Shown: piece after piece, positions 28,050 to 57,665 of the stretch
Numbering within the stretch: position 1 is the first letter of the stretch
Layout: the number at the start of each line of letters is the position of its first letter
DNA from: an uncultured Faecalibacterium sp.
GTDB lineage: Bacteria; Bacillota; Clostridia; Oscillospirales; Acutalibacteraceae
Direction of reading: 5' to 3'
NCBI GenBank assembly: GCA_964397395.1
Contig: CAYNIN010000001.1
Coordinates: forward strand, 1,353 to 65,352
DNA length: 64,000 nt
The notes under the pieces: model-generated
What the model saw: only the letters and a program-made list of their open reading frames with translations
The model's database searches: none
What the model was told of the DNA's origin: nothing
Translations under genes and position numbers: made by a program

Positions 28050-30638
28050 TCACCCCTTTGCATCATACCAGGTCTTTCCGCAGTGGACATCGGCAAGAAG
28101 TTTGACTTTCATCTTGCAGGCGTTTTCCATTTCCTGCTTGAGAATGACTTCAACTGCCTGTCTGTCCTTTTCGCTGCACTCAACAATAAGTTCGTCGTGA
28201 ACCTGCATAATGAGTTTTGCGTCAAGTTTTTCTTTTTTGAGCCGGACACTGACTTTTATCATTGCGATTTTGATTATATCGGCGGCAGTTCCCTGAACGG
28301 GCATATTCTTTGCAACTCTTTCGCCGAAAGCCTGAAGCATTTTATTGCTTGCGGAAAGTTCCGAAAGGTATCTTCTTCTGCCGAACATGGTGCTGACAAA
28401 GCCGTCTTCTCTTGCTTTCTCAACAGTCTTTTCAAGATAGTTTCTGATACCGCTGTAATGGTGAAGATAACCCTTTATATAGTTATCCGCCTCTTTCCTC
28501 GTTACGCCGATATCCTTTGCAAGTGAGAAAGCACCGATACCGTAAACAATACCGAAGTTTACCGCCTTTGCTCTGCTTCTCATAAGAGGAGTTACCATAA
28601 ATAAGGGCATATTGAAAACCTCGGAGGCAGTAATTGCGTGAATATCCTCTCCGTCATTGAAAGCCTGTATCATTGCGCTGTCATTTGACAAGTGAGCAAG
28701 AACACGCAGTTCAATCTGTGAATAGTCGGCATCGACAAGAACTTTGCCCTCAGCGGCACAGAAGAATTTACGCATTTCTCTGCCGAGTTCCGAGCGCACG
28801 GGAATATTCTGCAAATTGGGCTCTGCGGAAGAAATTCTGCCCGTTCTCGTTTCCGTCTGATTAAGAGTTGAACGGATTCTGCCGTCAGAGTCAATAACCT
28901 TCAAAAGTCCCTCGCAGTAGGTGGACTTGAGTTTTGATATTGCTCTGTATTCGAGAACGTCGGCAATAATGGGATAATCCGCCGAAAGTTCTTCAAGAAC
29001 TTCCGCATTGGTGGAATAACCGCTTTTTGTTTTCTTTCGGCAGGGTATGAGCAAATCTTCAAAAAGCACCTTGCCGAGTTGTTTGGGTGAGTTGATATTA
29101 AACTCCTCACCTGCCAGGGTATAAATTCTCTGTGTCAGTTCTTCAGCCTTTTCCGTCATAAGTTCGCCGAATTTTTCAATGCCCTCTTTGTCAACGAGGA
29201 AGCCTACCCTTTCCATATCGGCAAGAACTTCTGCAAGAGGCATTTCAATTTCATAGAAAAGTTCCGTCTGTCCGTTTTCTTCCATAAGGGAGAGAAGTTT
29301 ACCGCACAAATCTCTGAAAGAAGCACAGACAACCGCCTTTTCTTTAAACTCATCTGCACAGTCCACATCACAAAGCACCCCGTACTCCTGACAGAGTCTG
29401 TCAGCCTCATAAGAGTTTGCCGAGGGGTTGAGAATGTAGCCTGCAAGAGAGGTATCCATTTTTACGTTTTTAACTTCAACGTTCTTTTTCTTTGCAAATT
29501 TATAAAGAGCCTTGACGTCACTTGTATATTTTTCACTGTCACCCGAAAGGAAGGCGCAGACAAATTCTTCAAAGTCCAGGCAGTCCGAAGCAACATACTT
29601 CACCTTATCCTCAAAGGAGAACCAGAATTCCTTTATGCCCTTTTCATCAAAGAAGGTATTGAAATACGCCTTACCCTCTTTTTTGATTTCACCGAGAAGC
29701 AAAGGCAAATCTCTTTCTTCAATGAAAGACTTTTTCTCTTTTTCCTCCACCGTTAAAGCGGTGTTCTTTTCTGCCGTAAGACCCAGCTTTTCGATTATAC
29801 CGAACATTTCAAGATTTACAAGTATGGAAATTGCTTTCTTTGCGTCAATCTCACCGATACTGTAAGTTTCCATATTCAGACAAACGGGTGCTTCAAGACA
29901 GATTGTGCCGAGAGTACGGCTTAAGAAAGCGTTGTCCTTATCGGCAAGAAGTTTATCGTGAACGCCTTTTTTGATTTCGAGTTCCTCAAGGTGCTCATAG
30001 ATGTAGTCGATACTGCCGTACCTTGCAATAAGGTCGCCTGCGGTTTTCTGTCCCACACCTGCAACGCCGGGAATATTATCCGAGGAGTCGCCCATGAGAG
30101 CCTTAATTTCAATCATACCCTTGGGCTCAACGCCGTAATCTTCCATTATTTTTTCTTTATCGTATACGGTGGTAATGGCTTTGCCCATTTTTGTTGAGGC
30201 AAGAAGTACCTTTGTGGTATCGCTCACAAGTTGCAGAGAGTCACGGTCACCCGTTGCAATAAAGCACTCGTCCCCTTCCTTGCACTGAGCCGAAAGAGTA
30301 CCGAGAATATCGTCGGCTTCGTAGCCTTCTTTTTCTACGATTGTGTAACCTAAAGCGGTGAGCAGTTCCTTTAAAATGGGCATCTGACTGCGCAGTTCTT
30401 CAGGCATACCCTTTCGTCCTGCTTTATACTCGGAGTACATCTTATGTCTGAAAGTGGGAGCCTTCAGGTCAAAGGCAATTGCCACCTTATCGGGCTGACA
30501 CTCCTCACGGAGTTTAATGAGAATATTAAGAAAGCCGTAGATACCGTTGGTAAACTGACCGTCTTTGTTTGTCAGAAGTTTGATACCGTAAAAGGCTCTG
30601 TTGACAATACTGTTTCCGTCAAGAACAAGAAGTTTCAT
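28050..30638 (-). CDS. polA: DNA polymerase I
   Basis: 862 aa. 5'-nuclease domain (LLVLDGNSIVNRAFYG), then the polymerase motifs DYSQIELRVLAH, RSRAKAVNFGIVYG and QVHDELIVE. I chose the ATG at 30638, 6 nt after AGAGGTG. Confidence 0.93.
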   Translation of the reverse strand: MKLLVLDGNSIVNRAFYGIKLLTNKDGQFTNGIYGFLNILIKLREECQPDKVAIAFDLKAPTFRHKMYSEYKAGRKGMPEELRSQMPILKELLTALGYTIVEKEGYEADDILGTLSAQCKEGDECFIATGDRDSLQLVSDTTKVLLASTKMGKAITTVYDKEKIMEDYGVEPKGMIEIKALMGDSSDNIPGVAGVGQKTAGDLIARYGSIDYIYEHLEELEIKKGVHDKLLADKDNAFLSRTLGTICLEAPVCLNMETYSIGEIDAKKAISILVNLEMFGIIEKLGLTAEKNTALTVEEKEKKSFIEERDLPLLLGEIKKEGKAYFNTFFDEKGIKEFWFSFEDKVKYVASDCLDFEEFVCAFLSGDSEKYTSDVKALYKFAKKKNVEVKNVKMDTSLAGYILNPSANSYEADRLCQEYGVLCDVDCADEFKEKAVVCASFRDLCGKLLSLMEENGQTELFYEIEMPLAEVLADMERVGFLVDKEGIEKFGELMTEKAEELTQRIYTLAGEEFNINSPKQLGKVLFEDLLIPCRKKTKSGYSTNAEVLEELSADYPIIADVLEYRAISKLKSTYCEGLLKVIDSDGRIRSTLNQTETRTGRISSAEPNLQNIPVRSELGREMRKFFCAAEGKVLVDADYSQIELRVLAHLSNDSAMIQAFNDGEDIHAITASEVFNMPLFMVTPLMRSRAKAVNFGIVYGIGAFSLAKDIGVTRKEADNYIKGYLHHYSGIRNYLEKTVEKAREDGFVSTMFGRRRYLSELSASNKMLQAFGERVAKNMPVQGTAADIIKIAMIKVSVRLKKEKLDAKLIMQVHDELIVECSEKDRQAVEVILKQEMENACKMKVKLLADVHCGKTWYDAKG

Positions 30639-30721
30639 TTTTCGCACCTCTTAAATTTGTGTTGGTAATAGTATAACACAAATTTTTCCATAAAGATATA
30701 CAAATATAAGATTTTTTATGC

Positions 30722-36004: not shown

Positions 36005-36967
36005 TTAAAATATTCCCGGGATAATCTTTGCCGCGATGAAGCCTGCACCGAAGGAAACTGCATTTGCCACAAAAGAATAGATAATGTAAAACCTTGCTTT
36101 TCTCTCTTTGCTGCCGAGTTTTTTCATAAATGCCGAATAAAGCAGTGCTTCAAGGGCGAAGACGATAATTTCAAAGAAAATATAGTTATAAGTAAAAGCA
36201 AGATAACCCGAAGTGAAATTCACCGCATTTAAAAGAACGTTAAGTATTATCTGGGTTATGATATTGACGGCAGAAAGGAAAATAAGTTCATTTTTCTTTC
36301 TGAAGCCGAAAATAAGAGCAACTGCCGTTTCAATAATAATTGTTATCACAATACGTGCAAACAATGACAGAAGTTCTTTTGAATAATCGTAGGATTTTTC
36401 AGCCGTCAGTTCCTGACGGGTGGAGGCTTCAAACTGTTCAATACGTTCGTCGGTGCTGAGGGTTTCGTTATAATCCACAGTGCCGATTTCAATGCCCTGC
36501 ATATTAACCGTGTAATAAGTGTCAAAGGCGTATCTTTCATAAATTCCGCTGACGGCAAACTTTTCACTTTCGGGGTAATAGAGAAGAATTTTGAAACTGT
36601 GGGGCGGATAGTAAGTCCAGGCGAGTTCCTTATTTTCGCTGACTTTCCAGCCTGACTGCAAAAAGTAGTAACCGTCAGTATCTTTATAATCGACAAAGGC
36701 TTTCCAGATGTCGAAGTTTAGTTCTGAATATGAGTAATACTCGTTTTCATTGTGCCTTGCGTTTTCATCTTTTCCGTCCCATACCGCCGCAGGTCCCGTG
36801 CAGTCCGTTTCTGAAAGAAGAGTTCCGTAGCAAAGTTCGTCACCCATATTTTCAAAGATAATATGTACCGAAGCCTTGGGACCTATATCCGCATAAGCCG
36901 TTAAACTCATACACATAAGCACCGTTAAAATACAAAGTGCCCAATAAAACAATCTTTTGATTTTCAT
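36005..36967 (-). CDS. Hypothetical membrane protein (signal peptide, ~190-aa extracytoplasmic domain, 4 C-terminal TM helices)
   Basis: 320 aa. I recognise no family. Confidence 0.5.
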   Translation of the reverse strand: MKIKRLFYWALCILTVLMCMSLTAYADIGPKASVHIIFENMGDELCYGTLLSETDCTGPAAVWDGKDENARHNENEYYSYSELNFDIWKAFVDYKDTDGYYFLQSGWKVSENKELAWTYYPPHSFKILLYYPESEKFAVSGIYERYAFDTYYTVNMQGIEIGTVDYNETLSTDERIEQFEASTRQELTAEKSYDYSKELLSLFARIVITIIIETAVALIFGFRKKNELIFLSAVNIITQIILNVLLNAVNFTSGYLAFTYNYIFFEIIVFALEALLYSAFMKKLGSKERKARFYIIYSFVANAVSFGAGFIAAKIIPGIF

Positions 36968-40910: not shown

Positions 40911-41882
40911 TCAGTAAGTGAAATCCGAAAGGTACATATAATTATCAAGAACTGCCGTTCCTGCGGCGTTCAGACCGATAACTTTACCGCTGTTGATTTT
41001 AATAAGAATATGCATATATTGGTCAAGGGAAACAATTTCGTTTGTTTCGGGGTTATAGACAAGTTCTGCGGTGCAGTCATAATACGTAAGACTGAAATCG
41101 ATGTCTTTAATAAGGAACTTTACAGCCTTATCGTTTTCAAGAGTGTAGACAACCTCCGCTCTCTGAATAGGCGTGAACAATGAGCCGACGGCACTTTCGC
41201 AGGTCGTTGCACCTTCAGCGGGAGGCTCACTGTTGACTTCGTCGTTAAGCACAATAACAATTTTATTGTTGCCGTCGGGAAGAGCAGTACAAGTGGCAGA
41301 TTTAATTTTGCTCACATCGGTAAGCATACAGCCTTTCTGTACTCTGTAAATCGGGAACCAATACATATCGTTTCCCTTTTCTCTGATTTCGGGATTTGCT
41401 CTTGCCTTTTCTTCCGTTACGAAAAAGTTTGATGCAATAGGCAGAATTTTATCAAATACGCCGCCCTCAAAGTTAACTTTATCTTCGGGGATAGCCTGAT
41501 ATTCCACCTTTTTATGAGCAGGCTTTTCAGTTTTTGCCTTATCCACAATTAAAGTATACTTTGCAAGAATTTCTTCTGCCGTTGAGGGAACGGAAGATAC
41601 CGTTGCCTCGGTGGTGGTGACGGCAGAGGTTGTGGTGGCATCGGCAGAACTTTGTTCCGTTACCTGTGCCTGAGTTGTCGTTTGTGCAGTCGCTTGAGTT
41701 GTTGCCTGAGTTGTTGCCTGCGTTGTTGCCTGCGTTGTTGTTACGGGGGCCTGAGTAGTTGTCTGCGATGCAGTTTCAACTTCCGAGGTGTTTCCGTCTG
41801 AAGTTACGACAAAAACGACCGCTACGGCAAGACATACCGTAAGGGCAACGAGCAGTCTTAAAATTGTTTTTTCCTTTTTCAT
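40911..41882 (-). CDS. Secreted/anchored hypothetical protein with a (TTQA)n linker
   Basis: 323 aa. N-terminal TM/signal, a TTQATTQATTQATTQATAQTTTQAQ repeat, and a ~210-aa C-terminal domain of unknown family. Confidence 0.55.
   Translation of the reverse strand: MKKEKTILRLLVALTVCLAVAVVFVVTSDGNTSEVETASQTTTQAPVTTTQATTQATTQATTQATAQTTTQAQVTEQSSADATTTSAVTTTEATVSSVPSTAEEILAKYTLIVDKAKTEKPAHKKVEYQAIPEDKVNFEGGVFDKILPIASNFFVTEEKARANPEIREKGNDMYWFPIYRVQKGCMLTDVSKIKSATCTALPDGNNKIVIVLNDEVNSEPPAEGATTCESAVGSLFTPIQRAEVVYTLENDKAVKFLIKDIDFSLTYYDCTAELVYNPETNEIVSLDQYMHILIKINSGKVIGLNAAGTAVLDNYMYLSDFTY
41693..41740 (-). repeat. Tandem 12-nt coding repeat (4 units) encoding TTQA
   Basis: cttgagttgttg / cctgagttgttg / cctgcgttgttg / cctgcgttgttg. 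Confidence 0.75.
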
Positions 41883-43403: not shown

Positions 43404-46400
43404 TTACATATCAAACAAACTCATCTGTCTTGTTTCGGGCAAATCCCTGAATGCACCAACCTGACGGAGTGCTTCAATTGTTGATGAAGAAGCCGAGGCT
43501 TTCTGGGCAAAATCGTCAACGGATACAAACTCCGCACCGCCTTTTCTCGCCTCCATAAGAGCAATAGCCGCATTTTCACCGACACCGCTTAAAGCGCCGA
43601 AAGGCATACGGATTTTTCCGTCTTCAATTTCGTAAACGGTGGCGTGGGACTTGTAAATATCAACGGGAAGAAGTTCAATACCTCTTGCCATCATTTCATT
43701 TACAACCTGCAAAGTCGGGTACATATTGATTTCTTTGGGTTGTGCGTCCTTACCCTTGAGTTTAATATCCGCCATTCTTCTCTTAACGGCGTTTCTGCCC
43801 TCGATAACCGTTGCTGCTTCAAGGTCGCCGCCTCGTACCGTCATAAATGCCGCATAATATTCAAGGGGGTAGTAAATCTTGTACCAGCCAAGACGGAGTG
43901 CCGCACTTACATAAGCCGCCGCATGAGCCTTGGGGAACATATACTTGATTTTCATACAGGAGTCAATGTACCACTGCTCAACACCGTTATCTTTCATAGC
44001 CTGAATATGCTCCTCGGTAAGAAGTTTTGTCGCCTTACCCTTACGGACAATTTCCATAATCTTAAACGCCATACTCGGCTCAACGCCCTTATGCATAAGG
44101 TAAACCATAATGTTGTCACGGGTACCGATAACTTCTGAAATGGTGCAGATTTCGTCTTTGATAAGTTCCTGGGCATTACCCAACCAAACGTCCGTACCGT
44201 GAGAAAGACCTGAAACCTGAAGAAGATCGGAGAAATTCTTGGGCTGTGCATCAAGAAGCATCTGTATAACAAAGGGAGTGCCCATTTCGGGAATGGAAAG
44301 TGTACCCGTAGGACAGTCAATATCCTCTGCCGTAACACCCAAAGGCTCGGGGCTGAGAATTAGTTCGTATATCTTCGGGTCACATATATCCGTATCCATA
44401 ACGGAGATACCCGTCAGATCTTCAAGATGCTTATAAAGGGTGGGAACATCATGACCCAGATTATCAAGTTTGAGAATTGTATCGTGAAGTGCGTGGAAGT
44501 CGAAGTGGGTTGTTCTCGTGTCACTCTTTGCGTCGTCAGCAGGGTGCTGAACGGGAGTGAAGTCGGAAAACTCAAAAGCGTCGGGCACAACAACCATACC
44601 GCCCGGGTGCTGACCCGTTGTTCTTTTAACACCGGTACAACCCTTTGTGAGTCTGTCTTCTTCGGCACGGCTGACAACAATATCCCTTTCCTGAAGGTAT
44701 TTCTTAACATAACCGTAAGCGGTTTTATCGGCAACGGAGGCAATTGTTCCCGCTTTGAAAACGTGACCGTCACCGAAAAGGGTTTCCGTATATCTGTGGG
44801 CTCTTGACTGATATTCGCCCGAGAAGTTAAGGTCAATATCGGGGCTCTTATCGCCCTTGAATCCAAGGAAAGTTTCAAAGGGGATATCGTGACCGTCACG
44901 AATCATCGGTGTATCACAGTGGGGACAGTTTTTCGGCGGAAGGTCATAACCCGAACCTACCTCACCTTTAAGGAAAAATTCCGAATGTTTACAGTCGGGA
45001 CAGCGGTAATGGGGAGCAAGAGGATTAACTTCGGAAATACCCGAAGCGTTGGCAACATAAGATGAGCCGACGGAACCTCTCGAGCCTACGAGGTAACCGT
45101 GTTCCTCGGAGTTTTTAACAAGTTTCTGGGCAATCATATAAAGAACGCCGAAACCGTGTTTGATAATTGAGGTAAGTTCCTTTTCAAGACGTTTTGCAAC
45201 ATATTCGGGTACGGGGTCACCGTAAAGGCTTTTCGCCTTATCCCAGCAAAGTCTTGTCAGTTCCTCGTCGGCACCCTCAAGGGAGGGCGGGAAGTTACCG
45301 CTGGGTATGGGTATTATTTTTTCAATCATATCGGCAATTTTGTTGGTGTTGGTGATAACAACTTCCTTTGCCGTTTCTTCACCGAGATATGCAAATTCGC
45401 CGAGCATTTCCTCGGTGTTTCTGAAGTAAAGAGGTGCCTGATTATCCGCATCGGTAAAGCCCTGACCCGCCATAAGAATTGCTCTGTACTTTGCATCTTC
45501 CGGGTCAATGAAGTGAACGTCGCAGGTTGCAACAACCATTTTACCGAGGGCATCGGCAACGTGAATAACCTTGCGGTTGAAGTTCTGTATATCCTCAACG
45601 GAATTTACATTGGGGAATCGCTCGCTTCTTATCATATATTCGTTGTTGCCGCAGGGCTGAATTTCAAGATAGTCGTAAAAGGAAGCGATTTTCAGTATCT
45701 CCGCATCACTTTTGCCCTCAACAATCGCTCTGTAAAGTTCACCTGCCTCACAGGCACTGCCAATGATAAGACCCTCTCTGTGCTTTATGAGTTCACTTTT
45801 GGGAATAATGGGTCTGCGGTGGTAATATTCAAGGTTTGATTTTGTAATAAGTTTATAAAGATTTTTAAGACCCGTAAGGTTCCTTACGAGAATAATCTGG
45901 TGAAAATACTTATTCTTCGCCTTTTTCCAATCTTCAAAACTTTGCTCGGTATCGTCAATAAAATATCCTTCCATACCGTAGATAATCTTAATCTTACCGC
46001 CTGCCGCCGCAACGGCTTCGGGGAAAGCCTGAACAACGCCGTGGTCAGTGATTGCAATTGCCTTGTGACCCCAACTGATTGCTCTTTTTACAAGCACCGA
46101 CGCATCGGTCATACCGTCCATCATAGACATCTTTGTATGAAGATGCAGTTCAACTCTTTTTTCAGGTGCATCATCGGTCTTGGGTATTTTTTCAACAAGA
46201 CTTATTGCTCTGGGAGAAATAACATTTTCGCCCGTATATTTATCAAAGGAAAGGTCACCTCTGAGAAGCAGCGTAACGCCGTCTTTGATTTTTGCAAGAA
46301 GTGTTTCGCAGTTTTCCTTTCTCTCAAAAACCTTGCAGGTATAGGAATAAGTGTTGTCGGTAATGTTAAAGGTTATGATATTGCTTCTGCCGTCCCTTGT

Positions 46401-47138
46401 TTCTCTGCTTTCAAAAGAGAAAACATCACCCCACACAACGCAGGAGCCGTCTTCGGGAGTAATATCAATAAGAGGACGGGGATTTTTTGTAATTTTATTG
46501 CCGTAAATGGGTTTTGCTGTTTCAAGATAAAGAGGTATGCCCGGGGCGATTTTGTGTTCTTTCGGCTTCGGTGCCATATACTCCGCAGGGTCAATACCCT
46601 TGGCACGAAGATTTTCTTCTTCGGCTTTTCTGTGGAAAGAGGCAATCTCGTCGTCACTGATGTTAAGTTCCCTCTGTCCGCCGAAAACAACTTTAATTTT
46701 CCTGCCGAAATGCTCGGCAACTTTTCTTTCCATATACTCCCCTGCTTTGAAGGAGTCAAGAATGTCACCGCCGCCGTGAGAAAGTTCAACAGTCAGAGTT
46801 GTTCCGTCAAAACTGCAACTGCTGTCGGTAAGAAAGCCGTTTGAGGCAGGTATATCTCTGTTGACAAGGCTTACAAGAGATGAAAAATAACTTTCGGAAA
46901 ATCTTTCGGCAGGCATTTTTGTTCTGATATGAACGGAGTTTACCTGAAGTTTTGCTTTAAGTTCCTTTTCCGCCTCGTCGATTACTTTATATGTAACAAT
47001 ATCGGGAAAGAACGCCGTTATTTCAACGGCTTTTTTCTCCATAGATATTGCAACGTTTTCTATTTCACATAATAAAAATGCTTCTCTTGCCCTCTCTGAA
47101 CTGAAAGGGCCAAAGAGTTCTTCAAATCTACTGCTCAT
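43404..47138 (-). CDS. polC: PolC-type DNA polymerase III alpha subunit, apparently lacking the internal 3'-5' exonuclease domain
   Basis: PolC N-terminal domain, OB fold (VVWGDVFSFESRETRDGRSNIITFNITD), PHP (HLHTKMSMMDGM, AITDHGVVQAFPE), PolC Zn module (CPDCKH..CPHCDTP), polymerase core and C-terminal HhH. It is 1244 aa, versus roughly 1430 aa for canonical PolC. Confidence 0.88.
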   Translation of the reverse strand: MSSRFEELFGPFSSERAREAFLLCEIENVAISMEKKAVEITAFFPDIVTYKVIDEAEKELKAKLQVNSVHIRTKMPAERFSESYFSSLVSLVNRDIPASNGFLTDSSCSFDGTTLTVELSHGGGDILDSFKAGEYMERKVAEHFGRKIKVVFGGQRELNISDDEIASFHRKAEEENLRAKGIDPAEYMAPKPKEHKIAPGIPLYLETAKPIYGNKITKNPRPLIDITPEDGSCVVWGDVFSFESRETRDGRSNIITFNITDNTYSYTCKVFERKENCETLLAKIKDGVTLLLRGDLSFDKYTGENVISPRAISLVEKIPKTDDAPEKRVELHLHTKMSMMDGMTDASVLVKRAISWGHKAIAITDHGVVQAFPEAVAAAGGKIKIIYGMEGYFIDDTEQSFEDWKKAKNKYFHQIILVRNLTGLKNLYKLITKSNLEYYHRRPIIPKSELIKHREGLIIGSACEAGELYRAIVEGKSDAEILKIASFYDYLEIQPCGNNEYMIRSERFPNVNSVEDIQNFNRKVIHVADALGKMVVATCDVHFIDPEDAKYRAILMAGQGFTDADNQAPLYFRNTEEMLGEFAYLGEETAKEVVITNTNKIADMIEKIIPIPSGNFPPSLEGADEELTRLCWDKAKSLYGDPVPEYVAKRLEKELTSIIKHGFGVLYMIAQKLVKNSEEHGYLVGSRGSVGSSYVANASGISEVNPLAPHYRCPDCKHSEFFLKGEVGSGYDLPPKNCPHCDTPMIRDGHDIPFETFLGFKGDKSPDIDLNFSGEYQSRAHRYTETLFGDGHVFKAGTIASVADKTAYGYVKKYLQERDIVVSRAEEDRLTKGCTGVKRTTGQHPGGMVVVPDAFEFSDFTPVQHPADDAKSDTRTTHFDFHALHDTILKLDNLGHDVPTLYKHLEDLTGISVMDTDICDPKIYELILSPEPLGVTAEDIDCPTGTLSIPEMGTPFVIQMLLDAQPKNFSDLLQVSGLSHGTDVWLGNAQELIKDEICTISEVIGTRDNIMVYLMHKGVEPSMAFKIMEIVRKGKATKLLTEEHIQAMKDNGVEQWYIDSCMKIKYMFPKAHAAAYVSAALRLGWYKIYYPLEYYAAFMTVRGGDLEAATVIEGRNAVKRRMADIKLKGKDAQPKEINMYPTLQVVNEMMARGIELLPVDIYKSHATVYEIEDGKIRMPFGALSGVGENAAIALMEARKGGAEFVSVDDFAQKASASSSTIEALRQVGAFRDLPETRQMSLFDM

Positions 47139-47156: not shown

Positions 47157-48206
47157 TTACAGAAGTTCAATTTCTTTCATAAGTTCGTTTAAAATATCTT
47201 CTTCTTTTACTTTGCGCAATACTTCGCCTTTTCTGAATATCACCGCAGCGCCGTCACCGCCGGCAATGCCGATATCCGCTTCTTTTGCTTCACCGGGGCC
47301 GTTAACAACACAGCCCATTACTGCAACGGTAATATTCTTTTTTACACCTTTGAGTTTTTCTTCCGTTTCCTTTGCAAGAGAAATTAAGTCAATTTTCGTT
47401 CTTCCGCAAGTGGGGCAGGAAACGAGCCTTGGTGTGCTTTTATCAATCCCCACGGCTTTTAAAATATCAAAACCTGCATAAACCTCATTGACGGGCTTGT
47501 CCGTAAGGGAAACTCTTATTGTGTCGCCGATACCTCTTGTGAGAAGTGAGCCGATACCAACGCTTGACTTTATAAGTCCCATTCTTGCAGTGCCCGACTC
47601 CGTAACGCCCAGATGCAAGGGATAGGGACACAAAGAAGCAATTTTTTCATAAGAGGCTATCATATTCCCCACGTCCGAGGACTTGATGGAAATTACGATG
47701 TCGTCAAAGTCAAATTTCTCGAGAAGCCTCACGTGGTAAAGGGCGCTTTCTGCCATAGCCTCGGGAGTGGGTGCACCGTAAGAGGCAAGAATCTCTTTTT
47801 CAAGGGAGCCTGAATTAACTCCTATTCTTATAGGCACTCCCCTTCTCCTGCATTCGTCGGCAACTGCTCTGACTTTTTCGTCGGAACCGATATTGCCCGG
47901 ATTTATACGGATTTTATCCGCACCTGCCGCAAGACTTTCAAGGGCAAGTTTATAATCAAAGTGAATGTCCGCAACAAGAGGTACGGTGATATTTTTCTTC
48001 ACTTCTTCAAGGGTTTTTACGCTTTCTTTGTCGGGAACTGCAATTCTGATTATTTCACAGCCTGCTGTTTCAAGTTCCTTTGCCTGACGGATATTACCCT
48101 CTGTATCATAGGCAGGAATGTTAAGCATTGACTGAACGGTTATTTTACTGTCGCCGCCGATGAATATATCGCCGACTTTAACTTTTTTGCTCTGCCGTCT
48201 TGTCAT
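47157..48206 (-). CDS. ispG: 4-hydroxy-3-methylbut-2-en-1-yl diphosphate synthase
   Basis: IFIGGDSKITVQSM, CPTCGRT and GCVVNGPGE motifs. I chose the ATG at 48206, after GGGAGGAAG. Confidence 0.92.
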   Translation of the reverse strand: MTRRQSKKVKVGDIFIGGDSKITVQSMLNIPAYDTEGNIRQAKELETAGCEIIRIAVPDKESVKTLEEVKKNITVPLVADIHFDYKLALESLAAGADKIRINPGNIGSDEKVRAVADECRRRGVPIRIGVNSGSLEKEILASYGAPTPEAMAESALYHVRLLEKFDFDDIVISIKSSDVGNMIASYEKIASLCPYPLHLGVTESGTARMGLIKSSVGIGSLLTRGIGDTIRVSLTDKPVNEVYAGFDILKAVGIDKSTPRLVSCPTCGRTKIDLISLAKETEEKLKGVKKNITVAVMGCVVNGPGEAKEADIGIAGGDGAAVIFRKGEVLRKVKEEDILNELMKEIELL

Positions 48207-48230
48207 ATTTCTTCCTCCCGCCAAAAAATT

Positions 48231-49517
48231 TTAATAAAAACCTTTACCTGAAATAAGTTTCCATATATCGCTTGCCGATATAATCACCATAAAACCTAAA
48301 AGCAGTACAAGACCTGCGGCATGAATGTAGGACTCATATTTCTGAGGTACGGGTTTTCTGAAAACAAGTTCAAAAACCATAAAGAATAAGTGTCCGCCGT
48401 CAAGGGCAGGTATGGGTAAAAGGTTGAAAAGCCCGATGTTAATGGTAATCATTGCCATGAGCATAAACAGACCGCTCCAATCAACCGAAGCGATGCTTGA
48501 CTGTGCAATGTCCGCAATAACGGTAACTGTGCCGATGGGACCCGCAAGGTCATTGAGTCCGTACTGACCACGAAGCAAATCGAAAAGGCTCAGATACACA
48601 ATTCTGCCCATTGAAAGAGAATAGGAAAAGGCAGCAGAAAGCACATTGAAAACATTCTTTTCTTCACCCAATATCACAAAGTCGAAAAACGTTACCGTTG
48701 CAAGAGGAATATCGGAAAGAGATATTTCTTCTTCCCCTCTTTTTACGGTGAAGTCATAAACATAGTCTTCGTCTTTACCCAGAGAAGCCACAAGTTCTTC
48801 ACCCGTCGTAATTTTTTCGCCGTTAACCGAGGTGATAACATCGTTTTCTTCAAAACCTGCCTCTAAAAGTTCCTCGGAAATGCCGTAAACGGAGCCGTCT
48901 TCCGTATAATAGAAGTTTCCGCTTGTTCGTTTGCCGAATTTAACCTCGTCTAAAACTACCTTTTCGCCGTCACGAAGCACTGTAAATTCATAAGTACCGC
49001 TTGCGTTTCTTTGCATAAAATAGCTGATATCATAATCGGAAAAGACTCTTTTTCCGTCAATTTCAAGAATTTTGTCATTCTCTTTAAGGGCTTGGTTACT
49101 TACCGCACCCTCATAAAACTGCAAAACTGTGTTTGTTCCGACGTATTGCTCACTTGAAACAAGACAGATGCAGACAATAAAACCGAGAATAAGATTGAAC
49201 ACCGCACCTGCGGCAATTATAATCATTCTCTTCCATACTTTCTGGTTGCAGAAAGCTCTTTTGTCATCGCTGTTTTCTTCTTCACCCTCCATACTTACAA
49301 AACCGCCGAAAGGCAGAAGACGGAGAGCATATTTCGTTTCTTTGCCCTGCTTTTTCAGTATCGTCGGGCCCATACCGATGGCAAATTCGTTGACCTTGAC
49401 ACCGAAAAGTTTCGCAAAGATAAAGTGACCGAACTCGTGAATAAAGATAATCAGCCCAAAAAAGAGAATTGCAATAACAAAGGGTATAACCTTAGATAAA
49501 ATCGTTGAAAGTTCCAT
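48231..49517 (-). CDS. rseP: RIP site-2 metalloprotease RseP/RasP
   Basis: HEFGHF zinc motif in TM1, a central PDZ region, and the C-terminal NLLPIPALDGG motif. Confidence 0.9.
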   Translation of the reverse strand: MELSTILSKVIPFVIAILFFGLIIFIHEFGHFIFAKLFGVKVNEFAIGMGPTILKKQGKETKYALRLLPFGGFVSMEGEEENSDDKRAFCNQKVWKRMIIIAAGAVFNLILGFIVCICLVSSEQYVGTNTVLQFYEGAVSNQALKENDKILEIDGKRVFSDYDISYFMQRNASGTYEFTVLRDGEKVVLDEVKFGKRTSGNFYYTEDGSVYGISEELLEAGFEENDVITSVNGEKITTGEELVASLGKDEDYVYDFTVKRGEEEISLSDIPLATVTFFDFVILGEEKNVFNVLSAAFSYSLSMGRIVYLSLFDLLRGQYGLNDLAGPIGTVTVIADIAQSSIASVDWSGLFMLMAMITINIGLFNLLPIPALDGGHLFFMVFELVFRKPVPQKYESYIHAAGLVLLLGFMVIISASDIWKLISGKGFY

Positions 49518-49569: not shown

Positions 49570-50718
49570 TTACAGTATATGACTTTCCACCGTAAGTCTT
49601 GCATTTTTATCTGCTTCAAGAACGTCGGAAAGGTTGTAATCTTCTTTACTTGCCCCGTTTTCAAGGGCAAAAGATACACAGTCGGCAATTTCAAGGAAAC
49701 CGATTTTTCCCTGTCGGAAAAGTTCGTTTGCCTTTTCGTTGGCACCGTTGACAATTGCAGGGTAAAGTCCGCCTTTTTCAATTGCTTTTCTGCAAAGTGA
49801 AGGACAGATGAAAGTTTCGCTGTCCATTTCAAAAAATGAAAGATTGCCGTACTTTGAAAGGCTGAGTTTCCCCGTCGGCGACTCATACCTTTCAGGGTAG
49901 GTCAGAGCATACTGAATGGGAATCCTCATATCAGGTACGCCGAGTTGTGCAATAACAGAGTTATCTCTGTATTCAACAAGGGAATGCACCACGCTTTCAC
50001 GGTGAATGACTATATCAATCATATCAGGTTTGACATCAAAAAGCCACACCGCTTCAATAAGTTCAAGACCCTTGTTCATCATTGAAGCAGAATCAACGGT
50101 TATCTTTGCACCCATTGACCAGTTAGGGTGATTAAGTGCCTCTTTTACAGTGACATTTTCAAGGTCTTTTCTTTTTTTACTGAAAAAAGGGCCGCCTGAT
50201 GCCGTTAATATAATTGACTTAAGTTCACTCTTTTTATTCATACCCTCAAGACATTGAAAAATTGCACTGTGCTCACTGTCAACGGGCAGAATTTTTACAC
50301 CTTTTTCCCTTGCTCTCTTTGTCACAAGGGCACCGCCTGCCACAAGGGTTTCCTTATTGGCAAGGGCGATATTTTTCTTTTCGTCAATCGCCGTAAGAGT
50401 AGGCATTAGTCCTGCAATGCCCACAAGGGAGTTAAGCACCGTGTCGGCGTCTTTTGCCGCCGCACATTCGCAAACACCCTCTGCCCCCGAGAAAATTTTT
50501 GTATTCGTATCGGCAACAAGAGTTCTGAGTTCAGATGCCGCTTTTTCGTCAGCCATAGCGGCAAAGTCGGGTTTAAACTTTCTTATCTGCCTTTCCATCA
50601 ACTTAACGTTGCTTCCTGCGGCAAGAGAAACCACCTTTATGTTTCTCTTTTCGGCAACCTGAAGTGCCTGGGTGCCGATGGAGCCCGTTGAGCCTAAAAT
50701 TGAAATTTTCTCTGTCAT
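49570..50718 (-). CDS. dxr: 1-deoxy-D-xylulose 5-phosphate reductoisomerase
   Basis: ILGSTGSIGTQAL, LANKETLV, PVDSEHSAIFQC and NHPNWSMG. I chose the ATG at 50718, after GAGGAG. Confidence 0.93.
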   Translation of the reverse strand: MTEKISILGSTGSIGTQALQVAEKRNIKVVSLAAGSNVKLMERQIRKFKPDFAAMADEKAASELRTLVADTNTKIFSGAEGVCECAAAKDADTVLNSLVGIAGLMPTLTAIDEKKNIALANKETLVAGGALVTKRAREKGVKILPVDSEHSAIFQCLEGMNKKSELKSIILTASGGPFFSKKRKDLENVTVKEALNHPNWSMGAKITVDSASMMNKGLELIEAVWLFDVKPDMIDIVIHRESVVHSLVEYRDNSVIAQLGVPDMRIPIQYALTYPERYESPTGKLSLSKYGNLSFFEMDSETFICPSLCRKAIEKGGLYPAIVNGANEKANELFRQGKIGFLEIADCVSFALENGASKEDYNLSDVLEADKNARLTVESHIL

Positions 50719-50745
50719 AAGACAACTCCTCAAAGGATAATACTG

Positions 50746-55262: not shown

Positions 55263-57665
55263 TTACACTTTTTCTAATTTTGCATAATTTGCCATCAGTT
55301 TCTTTGTACTTCCGCCCTCAAAGGCAATTTCAAGCATTGCATCGTTTGCAACGGGTTTCGAGGAAAGAACAACACCTTTGCCGAAAACCTTATGCATAAC
55401 CGTGTCGCCCACATTGTACTGCACTTTCGGTGCGGCGGATTTACTCTGTACGGTCTGCTTGTTTCTTGCAAGGTATCCGTTACCCGTAAAGGCACTGCGG
55501 TCGCTTGCATCAATTCTGTCCTGTCTTTCATAGTCACCTCTTGCCAGAGCCTCAAAGGACATCTGCGACGAGGGACGTCTGCCGATTTTTTCCGTCAGGG
55601 CATCGGGGATTTCCAGAACAAAACGTGAGGGAAGATTACGGTGCGTTGTACCAAAGAGCATTCTTGAATTTGCGTGAGATAAGAAAAGTTTTCTCTTGGC
55701 TCTTGTTATACCGACATAGGCAAGTCGCCTTTCTTCCTCAACATCGTCGGGGTTGAACATACTCTGCACACCCGGGAAAATCGTTTCTTCCATACCGGGA
55801 ATGAAAACAACGGGAAATTCAAGACCCTTTGCCGAGTGGATTGTCATAAGGACTACGGCATCCTGCTGGGCGTTATAGTTATCAAGGTCGGTCATAAGAG
55901 CAACTTCTTCAAGGAAGCCCGAAAGTGTAGGTTCCTCGGCTTCATTCTGATAAGTTTTCAGGTTAGAAACAAGTTCGTATATGTTCTCGACTCTTTCTTC
56001 GCCCTTTTCTTTATCAAGGCGAAGATGAGCAATATAATCCGTCTTTCTTAAAACATCGTCAAAGAGTTCATCAAGAGGCAATTTGTCGATGTTCTCCCTC
56101 ATGGATTCAATACTTTCAGTAAAGAGCATCAACTTTTTGGCGCTTCGTTTGAGAGCCTCATACTCGTCAGCGTGAGAGAAAACCTCAAAGAGAGATATTC
56201 CGAGACCCGACGCAATTTCACTCGCCTTGTTTACCGTAGTGTCGCCGATGCCCCTTTTGGGCACATTAACAATTCTGCGCAGCCTTACGTTATCACCGGG
56301 ATTGTTTACCACCGTCAGATATGCAATCGCATCACGGATTTCCGCTCTTTCATAGAAACGGAAACCGCCGATAATTTTATAGGGTATGCCCGCCCTTACA
56401 AGTACATTTTCAAGGTTATTGGACTGGGCATTCATTCGGTAAAGAATTGCGTGGTCGCTGAAAGTGAACTTGCCTGAACTGACGTTTTCTTCGATTGTTT
56501 CCGCAATGAATTTTGCTTCGTCGGTTTCATCGTAAGCGGTATTGATAACTACCTTATCACCGCCGCCGTTGGCAGTCCAGAGGCTTTTGCCCTTTCGCTT
56601 TTTGTTGTTGGAGATAACCTCGTTGGCAACATCGAGAATCGTCTGGGTTGAGCGGTAGTTCTGCTCAAGACGGATTATCTGACTTTCCGCATATCTGTGT
56701 TCAAAGGAAAGTATATTTTCAATCGTTGCGCCACGGAAACGGTAGATACTCTGGTCATCGTCACCGACAACACAGATGTTTCTGTGACCTGCCGCAAGAA
56801 GTTCCGTCAGTCTGTACTGTGCGTGGTTTGTATCCTGATACTCGTCTACCATTATGTATCTGAATTTGCGTTGATAGTAACCTCTTACGTCGGGGTACTC
56901 CTCAAGAAGTTTAACGGTATTTACAATAATATCATCAAAGTCCATTGCATCGGAATTTTTCAGTTCTTTCTGGTACATTTTATAGACTTTGCCGATTTGC
57001 GCCTTTCTTGCATCCTTACCTGCCGAGGCTATATAATCCTCGGGAGAAACAAGGCTGTCCTTTGCGTGACTGATTTCATTAACAACAGTCTTGACAGGGA
57101 GAACGGCATCGCTTATACCCAATTGCCTCTGGCACTCTTTGACGAGCCTTTTGGTGTCGTCGGAATCGTAAATCGTGAAGTTTTTACTGTAACCGAGAAC
57201 TTCGCCGTCTTTTCTGAGTATTCTCACACAGCAGGAGTGGAAAGTTGAAGCCCAGATGTCCCCCGCCTCGTCGCCGAGCATTTTTTCAAGACGCTCTTTA
57301 AGTTCGTTTGCCGCCTTGTTGGTAAAGGTGATGGCAAGTATCTGCCAGGGTCTTGCAGGGTCAACGGCAATCAGATCCTCAATATCAAACATCGCATCGG
57401 TATCGCCGTCAAGATATGCTTTCATCAGACGTATATCTCTTTCACTCGGCTCAAAGGCAACTTCTTTGCTGTGATATGCGTCACCGTATTTTACGATATT
57501 TGCAATACGGTTAACGAGTACCGTTGTTTTGCCGCTTCCTGCACCTGCAAGAATGAGCACGGGGCCGTTGACCTGAAAGATAGCCTGCTGCTGTTTGTCA
57601 TTCATATATTTGAAATCATTCTCGATGATTTTCTTTCTGAGTTCAAAAAATTCTTTAGATGCCAT
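55263..57665 (-). CDS. pcrA: ATP-dependent DNA helicase PcrA/UvrD
   Basis: AGAGSGKTT (motif I), VDEYQDTN (motif II), the SF1 motifs, and a C-terminal Tudor-like VGDTVMHKVFGKGVV. Confidence 0.92.
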   Translation of the reverse strand: MASKEFFELRKKIIENDFKYMNDKQQQAIFQVNGPVLILAGAGSGKTTVLVNRIANIVKYGDAYHSKEVAFEPSERDIRLMKAYLDGDTDAMFDIEDLIAVDPARPWQILAITFTNKAANELKERLEKMLGDEAGDIWASTFHSCCVRILRKDGEVLGYSKNFTIYDSDDTKRLVKECQRQLGISDAVLPVKTVVNEISHAKDSLVSPEDYIASAGKDARKAQIGKVYKMYQKELKNSDAMDFDDIIVNTVKLLEEYPDVRGYYQRKFRYIMVDEYQDTNHAQYRLTELLAAGHRNICVVGDDDQSIYRFRGATIENILSFEHRYAESQIIRLEQNYRSTQTILDVANEVISNNKKRKGKSLWTANGGGDKVVINTAYDETDEAKFIAETIEENVSSGKFTFSDHAILYRMNAQSNNLENVLVRAGIPYKIIGGFRFYERAEIRDAIAYLTVVNNPGDNVRLRRIVNVPKRGIGDTTVNKASEIASGLGISLFEVFSHADEYEALKRSAKKLMLFTESIESMRENIDKLPLDELFDDVLRKTDYIAHLRLDKEKGEERVENIYELVSNLKTYQNEAEEPTLSGFLEEVALMTDLDNYNAQQDAVVLMTIHSAKGLEFPVVFIPGMEETIFPGVQSMFNPDDVEEERRLAYVGITRAKRKLFLSHANSRMLFGTTHRNLPSRFVLEIPDALTEKIGRRPSSQMSFEALARGDYERQDRIDASDRSAFTGNGYLARNKQTVQSKSAAPKVQYNVGDTVMHKVFGKGVVLSSKPVANDAMLEIAFEGGSTKKLMANYAKLEKV

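Follow-up and report, generated by a model that had tools for sequence, protein, structure and literature searches.

A PolC-type DNA polymerase III alpha subunit lacking the DnaQ-like exonuclease domain in an uncultured Clostridia bacterium

Background

Textbooks present PolC as the replicase that carries its own DnaQ proofreader, and the enzyme is also a target of antibiotics. Where a PolC naturally lacks this exonuclease (Exo), one has to ask how replication stays accurate. According to the survey of Timinskas et al. (2014, Nucleic Acids Res, PMC3919608), 6% of PolCs lack Exo; they occur in Clostridia and Negativicutes that possess PolC together with DnaE1, and their PHP motifs are intact. 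The PolCs of Acidaminococcus consist of an N-terminal domain (NTD), an OB fold, the PHP domain, the Pol3 core and a helix-hairpin-helix (HhH) domain, with the PHP motif conserved at nine of nine positions (PMC3919608). The 3F2B structure of G. kaustophilus PolC lacks both the NTD and Exo (Figure 1 legend, PMC3919608).

Exonuclease activity of the PHP domain itself has been established for Pol III of T. thermophilus and T. aquaticus (Barros 2013) and for DnaE1 of M. tuberculosis (PMC5636811). G. kaustophilus PolC's PHP domain, the sole PolC PHP assayed, binds metals and has no detectable exonuclease activity; it carries Asn, not Asp, at ligand 8 (Barros 2013). A biochemical assay of an exo-less PolC was not found in the literature searched. 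Here we describe a polC gene in a 64-kb window, by which we mean the whole stretch of DNA that was analysed, for which an original prediction had claimed a PolC without its proofreading exonuclease.

Results

Identity and domain organisation

The gene (Table 1) is the true polC orthologue of its host, a member of the Clostridia from gut or rumen that has not been cultured. That its product is a PolC, as the original prediction stated, follows from two NCBIfam equivalog models, both matched above their cut-offs: NF001688 with 1475 bits (cut-off 873) and TIGR01405 with 1355 bits (cut-off 1043). Each of these models matches in two stretches, the second of which begins at query residue 405-406, corresponding to position 609 of the NF001688 profile. 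The top PDB match is 3f2b, which spans query residues 221-1243, and comparison of the predicted structural model with 3f2b in Foldseek gives a TM-score of 0.77/0.79. Pfam matches comprise PHP, DNA_pol3_alpha, the finger domain and HHH_6, along with weak matches to the PolC N-I, N-II and OB models; together with the 3f2b alignment they give a domain order in which NTD and OB lie N-terminal to PHP, as is PolC-like, followed by the Pol3 core and the C-terminal HhH.

The zinc module and the C-terminal HhH named in the prediction are both present, the former with the cysteine pairs C713-C716 and C738-C741, all four of which are invariant in the family alignment. The catalytic PDIDLN motif is kept in 114 of the 115 family members, and the C-terminal clamp-type motif reads Q[IM]SLF across the family; QMSLF is of a type listed for PolC in the table of Timinskas et al. 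(PMC3919608). Two further elements give weaker profile signals. For the PolC N-terminal domain there are signals at the expected end of a protein whose N-terminus agrees with the family consensus, but both are sub-threshold (PF14480, E=1.8e-4 and 21.8 bits with a cut-off of 22; PF11490, E=0.027). The OB fold aligns with its counterpart in 3f2b and forms a beta-barrel in the predicted model (pLDDT 82-92), but its PF01336 match is weak. The predicted split of the PHP domain was not recovered, as PHP is contiguous in the 1244-aa protein (Pfam PHP 330-487).

Table 1. Positions of polC, of the parts of its product and of neighbouring genes in the window
Feature	Position	Strand	Residues	Details
polC	43404..47138	(-)	1244 aa + stop codon	exo-less PolC-type DNA polymerase III alpha subunit; continuous ORF and NCBIfam
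PolC N-terminal region	46524..47138	(-)	about 1-205	weak N-I and N-II domain signals
OB fold	46179..46478	(-)	about 221-320	aligned to 3f2b OB region; PF01336 weak
PHP domain	45354..46157	(-)	about 328-595	contiguous; PF02811 E=7e-31
Junction linker	45903..45968	(-)	391-412 (22 residues)	GYFIDDTEQSFEDWKKAKNKYF; occupies the canonical site of the ~190-aa Exo
Polymerase core (palm, thumb, fingers)	43689..45353	(-)	about 596-1150	PF07733 E=1e-55; PF17657 E=2.5e-20
PolC-specific zinc module	44916..45002	(-)	713-716 and 738-741	CPDC ... CPHC
Catalytic motif	44826..44843	(-)	766-771	PDIDLN
Tandem helix-hairpin-helix domain	43425..43682	(-)	1153-1238	C-terminal; PF14579 E=4e-17
Beta-clamp-binding-type motif	43413..43427	(-)	1238-1242	QMSLF, C-terminal
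ispG	47157-48224	(-)		upstream of polC; NCBIfam equivalog above cut-off
rseP	48231-49517	(-)		upstream of polC; NCBIfam equivalog above cut-off
dxr	49570-50733	(-)		upstream of polC; NCBIfam equivalog above cut-off

A short linker at the site of the exonuclease

Canonical PolCs carry a DnaQ-like exonuclease between PHP ligands 5 and 6; the query family lacks it and has a conserved linker of 20-24 residues in its place. In the query, 22 residues join ligand 5 (E390) to ligand 6 (H413), whereas the same spacing in Exo-bearing PolCs is typically 197-219 residues; relative to the G. kaustophilus numbering (E405 to H620) the deficit amounts to about 192 aa, which fits the missing domain, as had been suggested from the length of the protein. 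The segment that the prediction had singled out (45906-45956, residues 395-411, DDTEQSFEDWKKAKNKY) is part of this linker. Y392 and K408 are invariant across the family, and the predicted model places a short helix at 401-407 (pLDDT about 80-85).

Profile searches are consistent with this observation. Pfam recovers PHP (PF02811) in the query PolC, but RNase_T (PF00929) gives no match when hits up to E<=1 are admitted. A profile HMM built from 92 PolC Exo inserts, with which Exo-bearing controls score 237-248 bits, has no match on the 1244-aa protein, and when all six frames of the window are scanned its best match reaches only E=3.2. Our data thus confirm the central claim of the original prediction: the absence of the exonuclease is clean and in frame.

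Conservation and genomic context

The exo-less architecture is common to 115 homologues with at least 64% identity, and a continuous exo-less polC is present in all 80 of the related species-level genomes compared (Acutalibacteraceae, Ruminococcaceae and Oscillospiraceae MAGs). The labels of the relatives vary between Acutalibacteraceae, Ruminococcaceae, Oscillospiraceae and plain Clostridia. More than 100 of them conserve every remaining part of PolC intact, from the N-terminal region through OB fold, PHP domain, zinc module and catalytic aspartates to HhH and clamp motif. These counts mark the gene as real and under selection. With the Exo HMM, no Exo-like ORF or other Exo-like sequence was detected in any frame of the 80 related polC loci (about 1.1 Mb), and neither a split gene nor an exonuclease relocated within the locus, circumstances that would have spoken against the prediction, was seen in the window or in these loci.

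Directly upstream of the gene and on the same strand lie pyrH-frr-uppS-cdsA-dxr-rseP-ispG, which is the canonical polC neighbourhood of Firmicutes. A spacer of 18 nt with a GGTGG ribosome-binding site separates the ispG stop from polC; a promoter and terminator scan of the polC gene region remained at chance level.

The PHP metal site

Ligands were mapped by means of Table 1 of Barros 2013, the 3f2b alignment and a scripted position check. All nine metal-binding residues, whose state the original prediction had left to be checked, are intact and canonical (H332, H334, D341, H366, E390, H413, C463, D540 and H542, or HHDHEHCDH), and the motif is kept in 114 of the 115 family members. PHP motifs of this kind are classed as 'active' in a survey of 2026, which also describes up to three proofreaders in Clostridia.

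Intact PHP sites are found in 32/33 Exo-less and 55/94 Exo-bearing PolCs, a difference with a raw Fisher p=0.001 that ignores kinship. In a phylogeny-aware test of independent pairs, PHP status was the same in about 13 of 14 pairs, so the link between Exo loss and PHP is not independent of phylogeny; the test being uninformative, we set the association aside. In one PolC, P0224, Exo is absent and PHP is degenerate. It was considered as a sign of an organism without proofreader and rejected, because an Exo-bearing PolC is encoded next to it and P0224 is the second copy of this tandem; at the level of the organism it is no counterexample.

Recurrent loss of the exonuclease

The trees indicate that deletion or erosion of Exo recurs many times across clostridial PolCs. 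A 127-row tree contains 17 Exo changes, at least 12 of them forced by well-supported branches, and a careful 25-row tree contains 8, at least 5 of them forced; exo-less rows were monophyletic in none of the 200 bootstrap trees of the latter. Nine PolCs possess long but eroded inserts that give no exonuclease signal with either the HMM or Pfam. The loss in the query lineage was very probably an event independent of that in Acidaminococcus. Multiple losses within the query's own family are not claimed, because an AU test of a single loss in its 10-row clade does not reject a single origin (p=0.12).

Discussion

How can a replicase without its built-in exonuclease remain accurate? We think it rather probable that the exo-less product of this polC is active as a replicase and that its proofreading is PHP-based. 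It would act as the replicative polymerase of a PolC+DnaE1 replisome, and 3'-5' proofreading would most likely come from a metal-dependent PHP-domain exonuclease, be it at the site of PolC itself (HHDHEHCDH), at the PHP site of its partner DnaE1, or at both. Two observations make this source the most likely one: all nine PHP ligands of PolC are canonical, and four related MAGs (JAZRJR01, JAEEUW01, URPR01 and CADAYJ01), one of them with a PolC that shares 80% identity with the query, combine an exo-less PolC with a DnaE1 of 1150-1166 aa that carries HHDHEHCDH and hence an intact PHP motif. The PolC site resembles that of the active Thermus enzymes in having Asp at ligand 8, and an epsilon-like subunit in trans would not be expected. 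The DnaQ insert may have been one of several redundant proofreaders in this lineage, lost without cost, which would explain its repeated deletion or erosion in clostridial PolCs. Among the three functional options that the original prediction had raised (a stand-alone DnaQ-like protein, the PHP domain, or replication of unusual fidelity), PHP-domain proofreading is the best supported: the ligands are intact and almost universally conserved in the family, while the activity is one that we infer.

Alternatively, PolC might not proofread at all, and the PHP-intact DnaE1 might be the principal high-fidelity replicase, the exo-less PolC serving only a subsidiary purpose or a specialised one. We regard this as rather unlikely, and equally so its corollary that residual errors are left to DnaE1 in trans and to mismatch repair. 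The idea was raised by Timinskas et al., who point out that clostridial DnaE1 has every property of a replicase able to work alone, that DnaE1 is the only one of the two in part of the Clostridia, and that exo-less PolCs are confined to the PolC+DnaE1 group (PMC3919608). The co-occurrence of a PHP-intact DnaE1 with exo-less PolC in the four related MAGs accords with it as well, as does the lack of detectable exonuclease activity in G. kaustophilus PolC's PHP domain. On the other hand, retention of the PolC PHP ligands in all but one of the 115 proteins suggests a site that is used and not merely structural, and conservation of the canonical locus and of the motifs for polymerase, zinc and clamp is what one expects of a core replisome enzyme.

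Proofreading in trans by an exonuclease that escaped our searches, such as a divergent DnaQ/DEDD protein, a gene missing from the assembly or a non-DEDD nuclease, appears improbable. The genome is a MAG of 188 contigs, an estimated 97% complete, and PF00929 was the sole family searched; moreover, a DnaQ of non-canonical type works next to PHP in Mycobacteria (PMC11348249). Against this stands the single profile search of the whole assembly (1.97 Mb), which returned zero PF00929 matches while control genomes matched. Nor was there an Exo-like ORF in the window or in the related polC loci, and the Pol I encoded in the window matches PF22619, an RNase H-like Pol I domain, and not PF01612. The stand-alone DnaQ-like proofreader of the original prediction in particular is not supported: PF00929 is absent from the assembly in that one search, and the window and the 80 loci yielded no candidate.

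That the missing domain is an artefact of mis-assembly, a frameshift, a split gene or a decaying pseudogene can be dismissed, for apart from the genome being a MAG nothing favours it, and the frame is continuous, the same junction recurs in 115 homologues and, at species level, in 80 genomes that were assembled independently, the functional motifs are strongly conserved, and no frame of the window or of the related loci holds a remnant of Exo.

PHP-based proofreading by an active PolC, the reading that we prefer, can be taken further. The organism may be without any DnaQ-family exonuclease and may rely for replicative proofreading on PHP nucleases only, with PolC using its own PHP site and Exo lost at least 12 times; we offer this extended version tentatively, as possible but falling somewhat short of probable. 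If it is true, PHP proofreading by PolC, which is not known to have been demonstrated for any PolC, could be tested in this lineage as a PHP-only system provided by nature, and bacteria with PolC+DnaE1 could dispense with the DnaQ insert as a mere add-on, with at least 12 independent deletions or erosions of it.

The query is a further example of exo-less PolC, a variant on record since 2014 and frequent among related bacteria; the case reveals no new kind of system, the precedent being known from published genome surveys since that year. This, together with the pairing with a PHP-intact DnaE1 seen in the four related MAGs, considerably lowers the surprise. What our analysis adds is that a large clade of gut and rumen Clostridia, all uncultured, has the trait as a fixed feature along with tightly conserved PHP ligands, and that no DnaQ-family domain was found in the genome (one search, 97%-complete MAG). 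Taken together, these results sharpen the PHP-proofreading hypothesis and indicate proteins suited to testing it.

Comparison with known systems

Judging from its sequence, the query belongs to the exo-less PolC subgroup of Timinskas et al. 2014, for which the conserved PHP motif is HHDHEH[C/H]DH. With the PolC of Acidaminococcus fermentans DSM 20731 (1191 aa) it shares the exo-less architecture, HHDHEHCDH at nine of nine positions and a C-terminal clamp-binding-type motif. The subgroup is a PolC+DnaE1 lineage, a pairing that for the query lineage was seen in related MAGs only. Acidaminococcus belongs to the Negativicutes, whereas the query comes from uncultured gut Clostridia of Acutalibacteraceae type, and its linker sequence is specific to its own family.

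Canonical PolCs (B. subtilis, S. aureus and G. kaustophilus; PDB 9qpc) share with the query equivalog-level sequence, domain order, zinc module, catalytic motif, HhH, clamp motif and genomic locus, but possess the DEDDh exonuclease of ~190 aa inserted in the PHP domain that the query lacks. A further difference lies at PHP ligand 8, which is Asp in the query and Asn in G. kaustophilus and many Bacilli PolCs. In this respect the query resembles Pol III alpha of T. thermophilus and T. aquaticus and DnaE1 of M. tuberculosis, which have the complete set of nine PHP ligands with Asp at position 8 and, like the query, no DnaQ fused to the polymerase. These enzymes are of DnaE1 type and the query is of PolC type, and PHP exonuclease activity, shown experimentally in the former, is what we infer for the latter.

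A further parallel is an engineered one. The delta-N delta-Exo G. kaustophilus PolC (PDB 3F2B/3F2C/3F2D), crystallised with DNA and dGTP, is collinear with the query over residues 221-1243 without a large gap. In both, Exo gives way to a short linker at the same point; by a hand count from the alignment the construct has 26 residues between ligands 5 and 6, compared with 22 in the query. The query is the natural counterpart of this construct: in contrast to the man-made deletion, its own is natural and conserved, with a linker in which aromatic and basic residues are conserved and a short helix is predicted.

A PolC lacking the exonuclease domain

The polC gene of the window is an unbroken frame whose ATG, preceded by a GGTGG ribosome-binding site, is separated from the end of ispG by a spacer of 18 nt. 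Further upstream the order pyrH-frr-uppS-cdsA-dxr-rseP-ispG represents the usual polC neighbourhood, which marks the gene as the orthologue in its own locus rather than a stray paralogue. Its product clearly exceeds the cut-offs of both NCBIfam PolC equivalogs, NF001688 (1475 bits versus 873) and TIGR01405 (1355 bits versus 1043), and Pfam recognises the Pol III alpha NTPase and finger domains, a contiguous PHP domain and a C-terminal HHH_6, together with weak matches to the PolC N-I, N-II and OB models. The catalytic and clamp-type motifs are present, as is the zinc module quoted in the original prediction (see table).

Positions of the features discussed
Feature	Position (strand)	Product length or residues
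polC	43404..47138 (-)	1244 aa
Junction in polC, DDTEQSFEDWKKAKNKY	45906-45956	395-411
PHP domain of PolC (Pfam)		330-487
PHP metal ligands of PolC		H332, H334, D341, H366, E390, H413, C463, D540, H542
Zinc module of PolC		C713/C716, C738/C741
Catalytic PDIDLN motif of PolC		766-771
Clamp-type motif QMSLF of PolC		C-terminal
Pol I gene	28050-30647 (-)	865 aa
PcrA/UvrD-type helicase gene	55263-57665 (-)	800 aa
ORF near polC	40911-41882 (-)	~320 aa
ORF near polC	36005-36967 (-)	~320 aa
Tandem PolC pair, metagenomic contig L081	L081:3702-11537	1400 aa and 1178 aa

The claim that this PolC has no proofreading exonuclease (Exo) domain is confirmed by our data. In Geobacillus kaustophilus PolC, whose PHP metal ligands are H346, H348, D355, H380, E405, H620, C670, N743 and H745 (Barros et al. 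2013), Exo lies within the 214 residues that separate ligands 5 and 6. All nine ligands can be located in the window PolC, which has only 22 residues between the same two, about 192 aa fewer; the typical length of this segment in Exo-bearing PolCs is 197-219 residues (MAFFT alignment of 127 PolC representatives). Both equivalog matches are split in two, the second starting at residue 405-406 (NF001688 profile position 609). RNase_T (PF00929) does not match the protein even at E<=1, nor does an Exo HMM made from 92 Exo inserts of PolC representatives, which scores 237-248 bits on Exo-bearing controls; this excludes a divergent but intact Exo. When the same HMM was run on all six frames of the 64-kb window and of 80 related polC loci, no hit was better than E=3.2, which for the window excludes a split gene or an Exo encoded nearby.

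Two other ORFs near polC gave no NCBIfam match at E<=1e-5. The PcrA/UvrD-type helicase of the window matches TIGR01073 in two stretches, the main one from residue 95 (profile position 38), with 856 bits, just under the PcrA equivalog cut-off of 911; the position of the main stretch suggests an additional segment of ~55 aa near the N-terminus.

Conservation and recurrent loss

A junction-centred homologue search recovered more than 120 clusters of ~1244 aa without PF00929, with identities down to 64%; the assemblies of origin (NCBI, ENA and Logan) bear the names Clostridia, Acutalibacteraceae, Oscillospiraceae or Ruminococcaceae. In 115 near-full-length members of this exo-less family the linker measures 20-24 aa; the PHP motif reads HHDHEHCDH in 114 of them, the remaining one having His at position 3, as permitted by the Barros consensus. 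PDIDLN is likewise found in 114/115, and the zinc cysteines and Q[IM]SLF are conserved too. In the GTDB species-representative collection, all of the best 80 loci (53-86% identity), from gut and rumen MAGs of humans, cattle, goats, chickens and other hosts, carry an unbroken exo-less polC. An assembly or frameshift artefact is rejected, given the same architecture in the 115 members and these 80 loci. One homologue, P0055 (864 aa, on a 3.6-kb contig, annotated as a partial sodium/proton-translocating pyrophosphatase), combines PF03030 with PolC PHP and polymerase domains and most likely reflects a chimeric contig or fused gene call and no real fusion protein.

The exo-less state is scattered over the PolC phylogeny. 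An unrooted FastTree of the 127 representatives, with linker columns left out, requires 17 changes, at least 12 of them forced by well-supported branches, and an IQ-TREE of 25 rows around the window PolC requires 8 (bootstrap 5-95% range 8-9), at least 5 being forced; the exo-less rows form a single clade in none of 200 bootstrap trees of the latter. Strongly supported sister pairs of opposite state are P0141/P0175 and P0125/P0130. For the 10-row clade that contains the window PolC, an AU test does not reject a single loss (p=0.12). The unrooted counts fit either direction, but since site and insert are homologous across all these proteins, independent losses are far more plausible than independent gains.

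Nine further PolCs from other Clostridia-type lineages (P0138, P0148, P0155, P0158, P0176, P0192, P0197, P0203 and P0220) possess an insert of 140-290 aa with no RNase_T signal (best 16.4 bits versus a cut-off of 24; Pfam control 141.7 bits). Their DEDDh motifs are gone, the PHP motif is intact in all, and their sequences suggest intermediate stages in the erosion of an Exo-bearing PolC to an exo-less one. No recognisable Exo is found in 33/127 PolCs, and 32 of these have a perfect PHP motif compared to 55/94 Exo-bearing ones, a contrast that is largely phylogenetic and for which an independent-pairs test is uninformative. We therefore present Exo loss as arising on a PHP-intact background and do not claim compensation as proven. 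Recurrent loss, erosion intermediates and this background are what the present analysis adds.

The sole exception, P0224 (1178 aa), has degenerate PHP ligands (HRSLENADQ) and lies directly downstream of a 1400-aa Exo-bearing PolC on the same contig, which identifies it as a second PolC copy. Neighbours of the pair include DnaJ-like genes, a resolvase and two Cas12f1-like_TNB (TnpB-type) genes, a setting that may be mobile or otherwise unusual.

Possible sources of proofreading

The most likely mechanism, judged from sequence, is a PolC+DnaE1 replisome in which PolC would be an active polymerase and proofreading would come from the metal-dependent PHP exonuclease of PolC itself, of DnaE1, or of both. 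Exonuclease activity of this kind is well documented in Thermus Pol III (Barros et al. 2013) and Mycobacterium tuberculosis DnaE1 (PMC5636811). The main caveat is that the G. kaustophilus PHP, the sole PolC PHP domain ever assayed, had no detectable exonuclease activity (Barros et al. 2013); PHP ligand 8 of G. kaustophilus PolC is Asn, as opposed to Asp in the window PolC as well as in the active Thermus enzymes. DnaE1 loci were fetched from named genomes with the Ethanoligenens harbinense DnaE1 fragment printed in the PMC3919608 supplement, and all nine PHP positions are intact in 79/80 of them. Four MAGs are common to the exo-less PolC and DnaE1 lists: JAZRJR01 (PolC L017, 80% identity to the window PolC; DnaE1 L131), JAEEUW01 (L016, 74%; L149), URPR01 (L071, 55%; L124) and CADAYJ01 (L074, 53%; L152). 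Their DnaE1 proteins measure 1150-1166 aa and carry the PHP motif HHDHEHCDH.

The original interpretation is partly supported. Of the two sources of proofreading that it proposed, the PHP domain is favoured, and a stand-alone DnaQ-like protein is not supported: one search of the whole assembly (1.97 Mb, 188 contigs, 97% complete) gave zero PF00929 matches, compared to matches in 11/14 control genomes. If true, this complete lack would be unusual, as a bacterial proteome contains on average over three free-standing homologues of DnaQ (2026 polymerase survey). The window Pol I is full-length, with 5'-3' exonuclease and polymerase domains, but the sole Pfam match of its middle domain is PF22619 (RNase H-like Pol I domain), the 3'-5' exonuclease model PF01612 being absent, so that an active 3'-5' exonuclease is without Pfam support and this domain is probably vestigial.

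Comparison with known PolCs

We take Ethanoligenens harbinense to be a member of the window organism's order. Its PolC (1457 aa) has kept Exo (PMC3919608 supplement). Of the PolCs surveyed by Timinskas et al. (PMC3919608), 6% have no Exo; save one extra PolC copy in Thermotogae, these come from Clostridia and Negativicutes, lineages in which PolC is paired with DnaE1, and the internal exonuclease is absent in 16% of PolCs of PolC+DnaE1 systems. A 2026 survey by the same group defines HHDHEH[C/H]DH as the 'active' PHP motif and finds three candidate proofreaders usual in Clostridia. The literature searched contained no biochemical study of any exo-less PolC, and the remaining interest lies in this biochemistry rather than in the discovery of the variant.

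The best PDB match of the window PolC, collinear over residues 221-1243, is 3F2B, a G. kaustophilus PolC construct without the NTD and Exo domains (PMC3919608, Figure 1 legend). An AlphaFold model of residues 221-1244 (mean pLDDT 78.5; OB and PHP regions mostly >80) superposes on this likewise exo-less structure with TM-scores of 0.77/0.79, and the linker is predicted to form a short helix (401-407) between the PHP strands bearing E390 and H413. The Acidaminococcus PolCs (1191 and 1210 aa; NTD+OB+PHP+Pol3+HhH; PMC3919608 supplementary table) share with the window PolC both the lack of Exo and the PHP motif HHDHEHCDH (9/9), and the window polC is a new member of this already published exo-less class.
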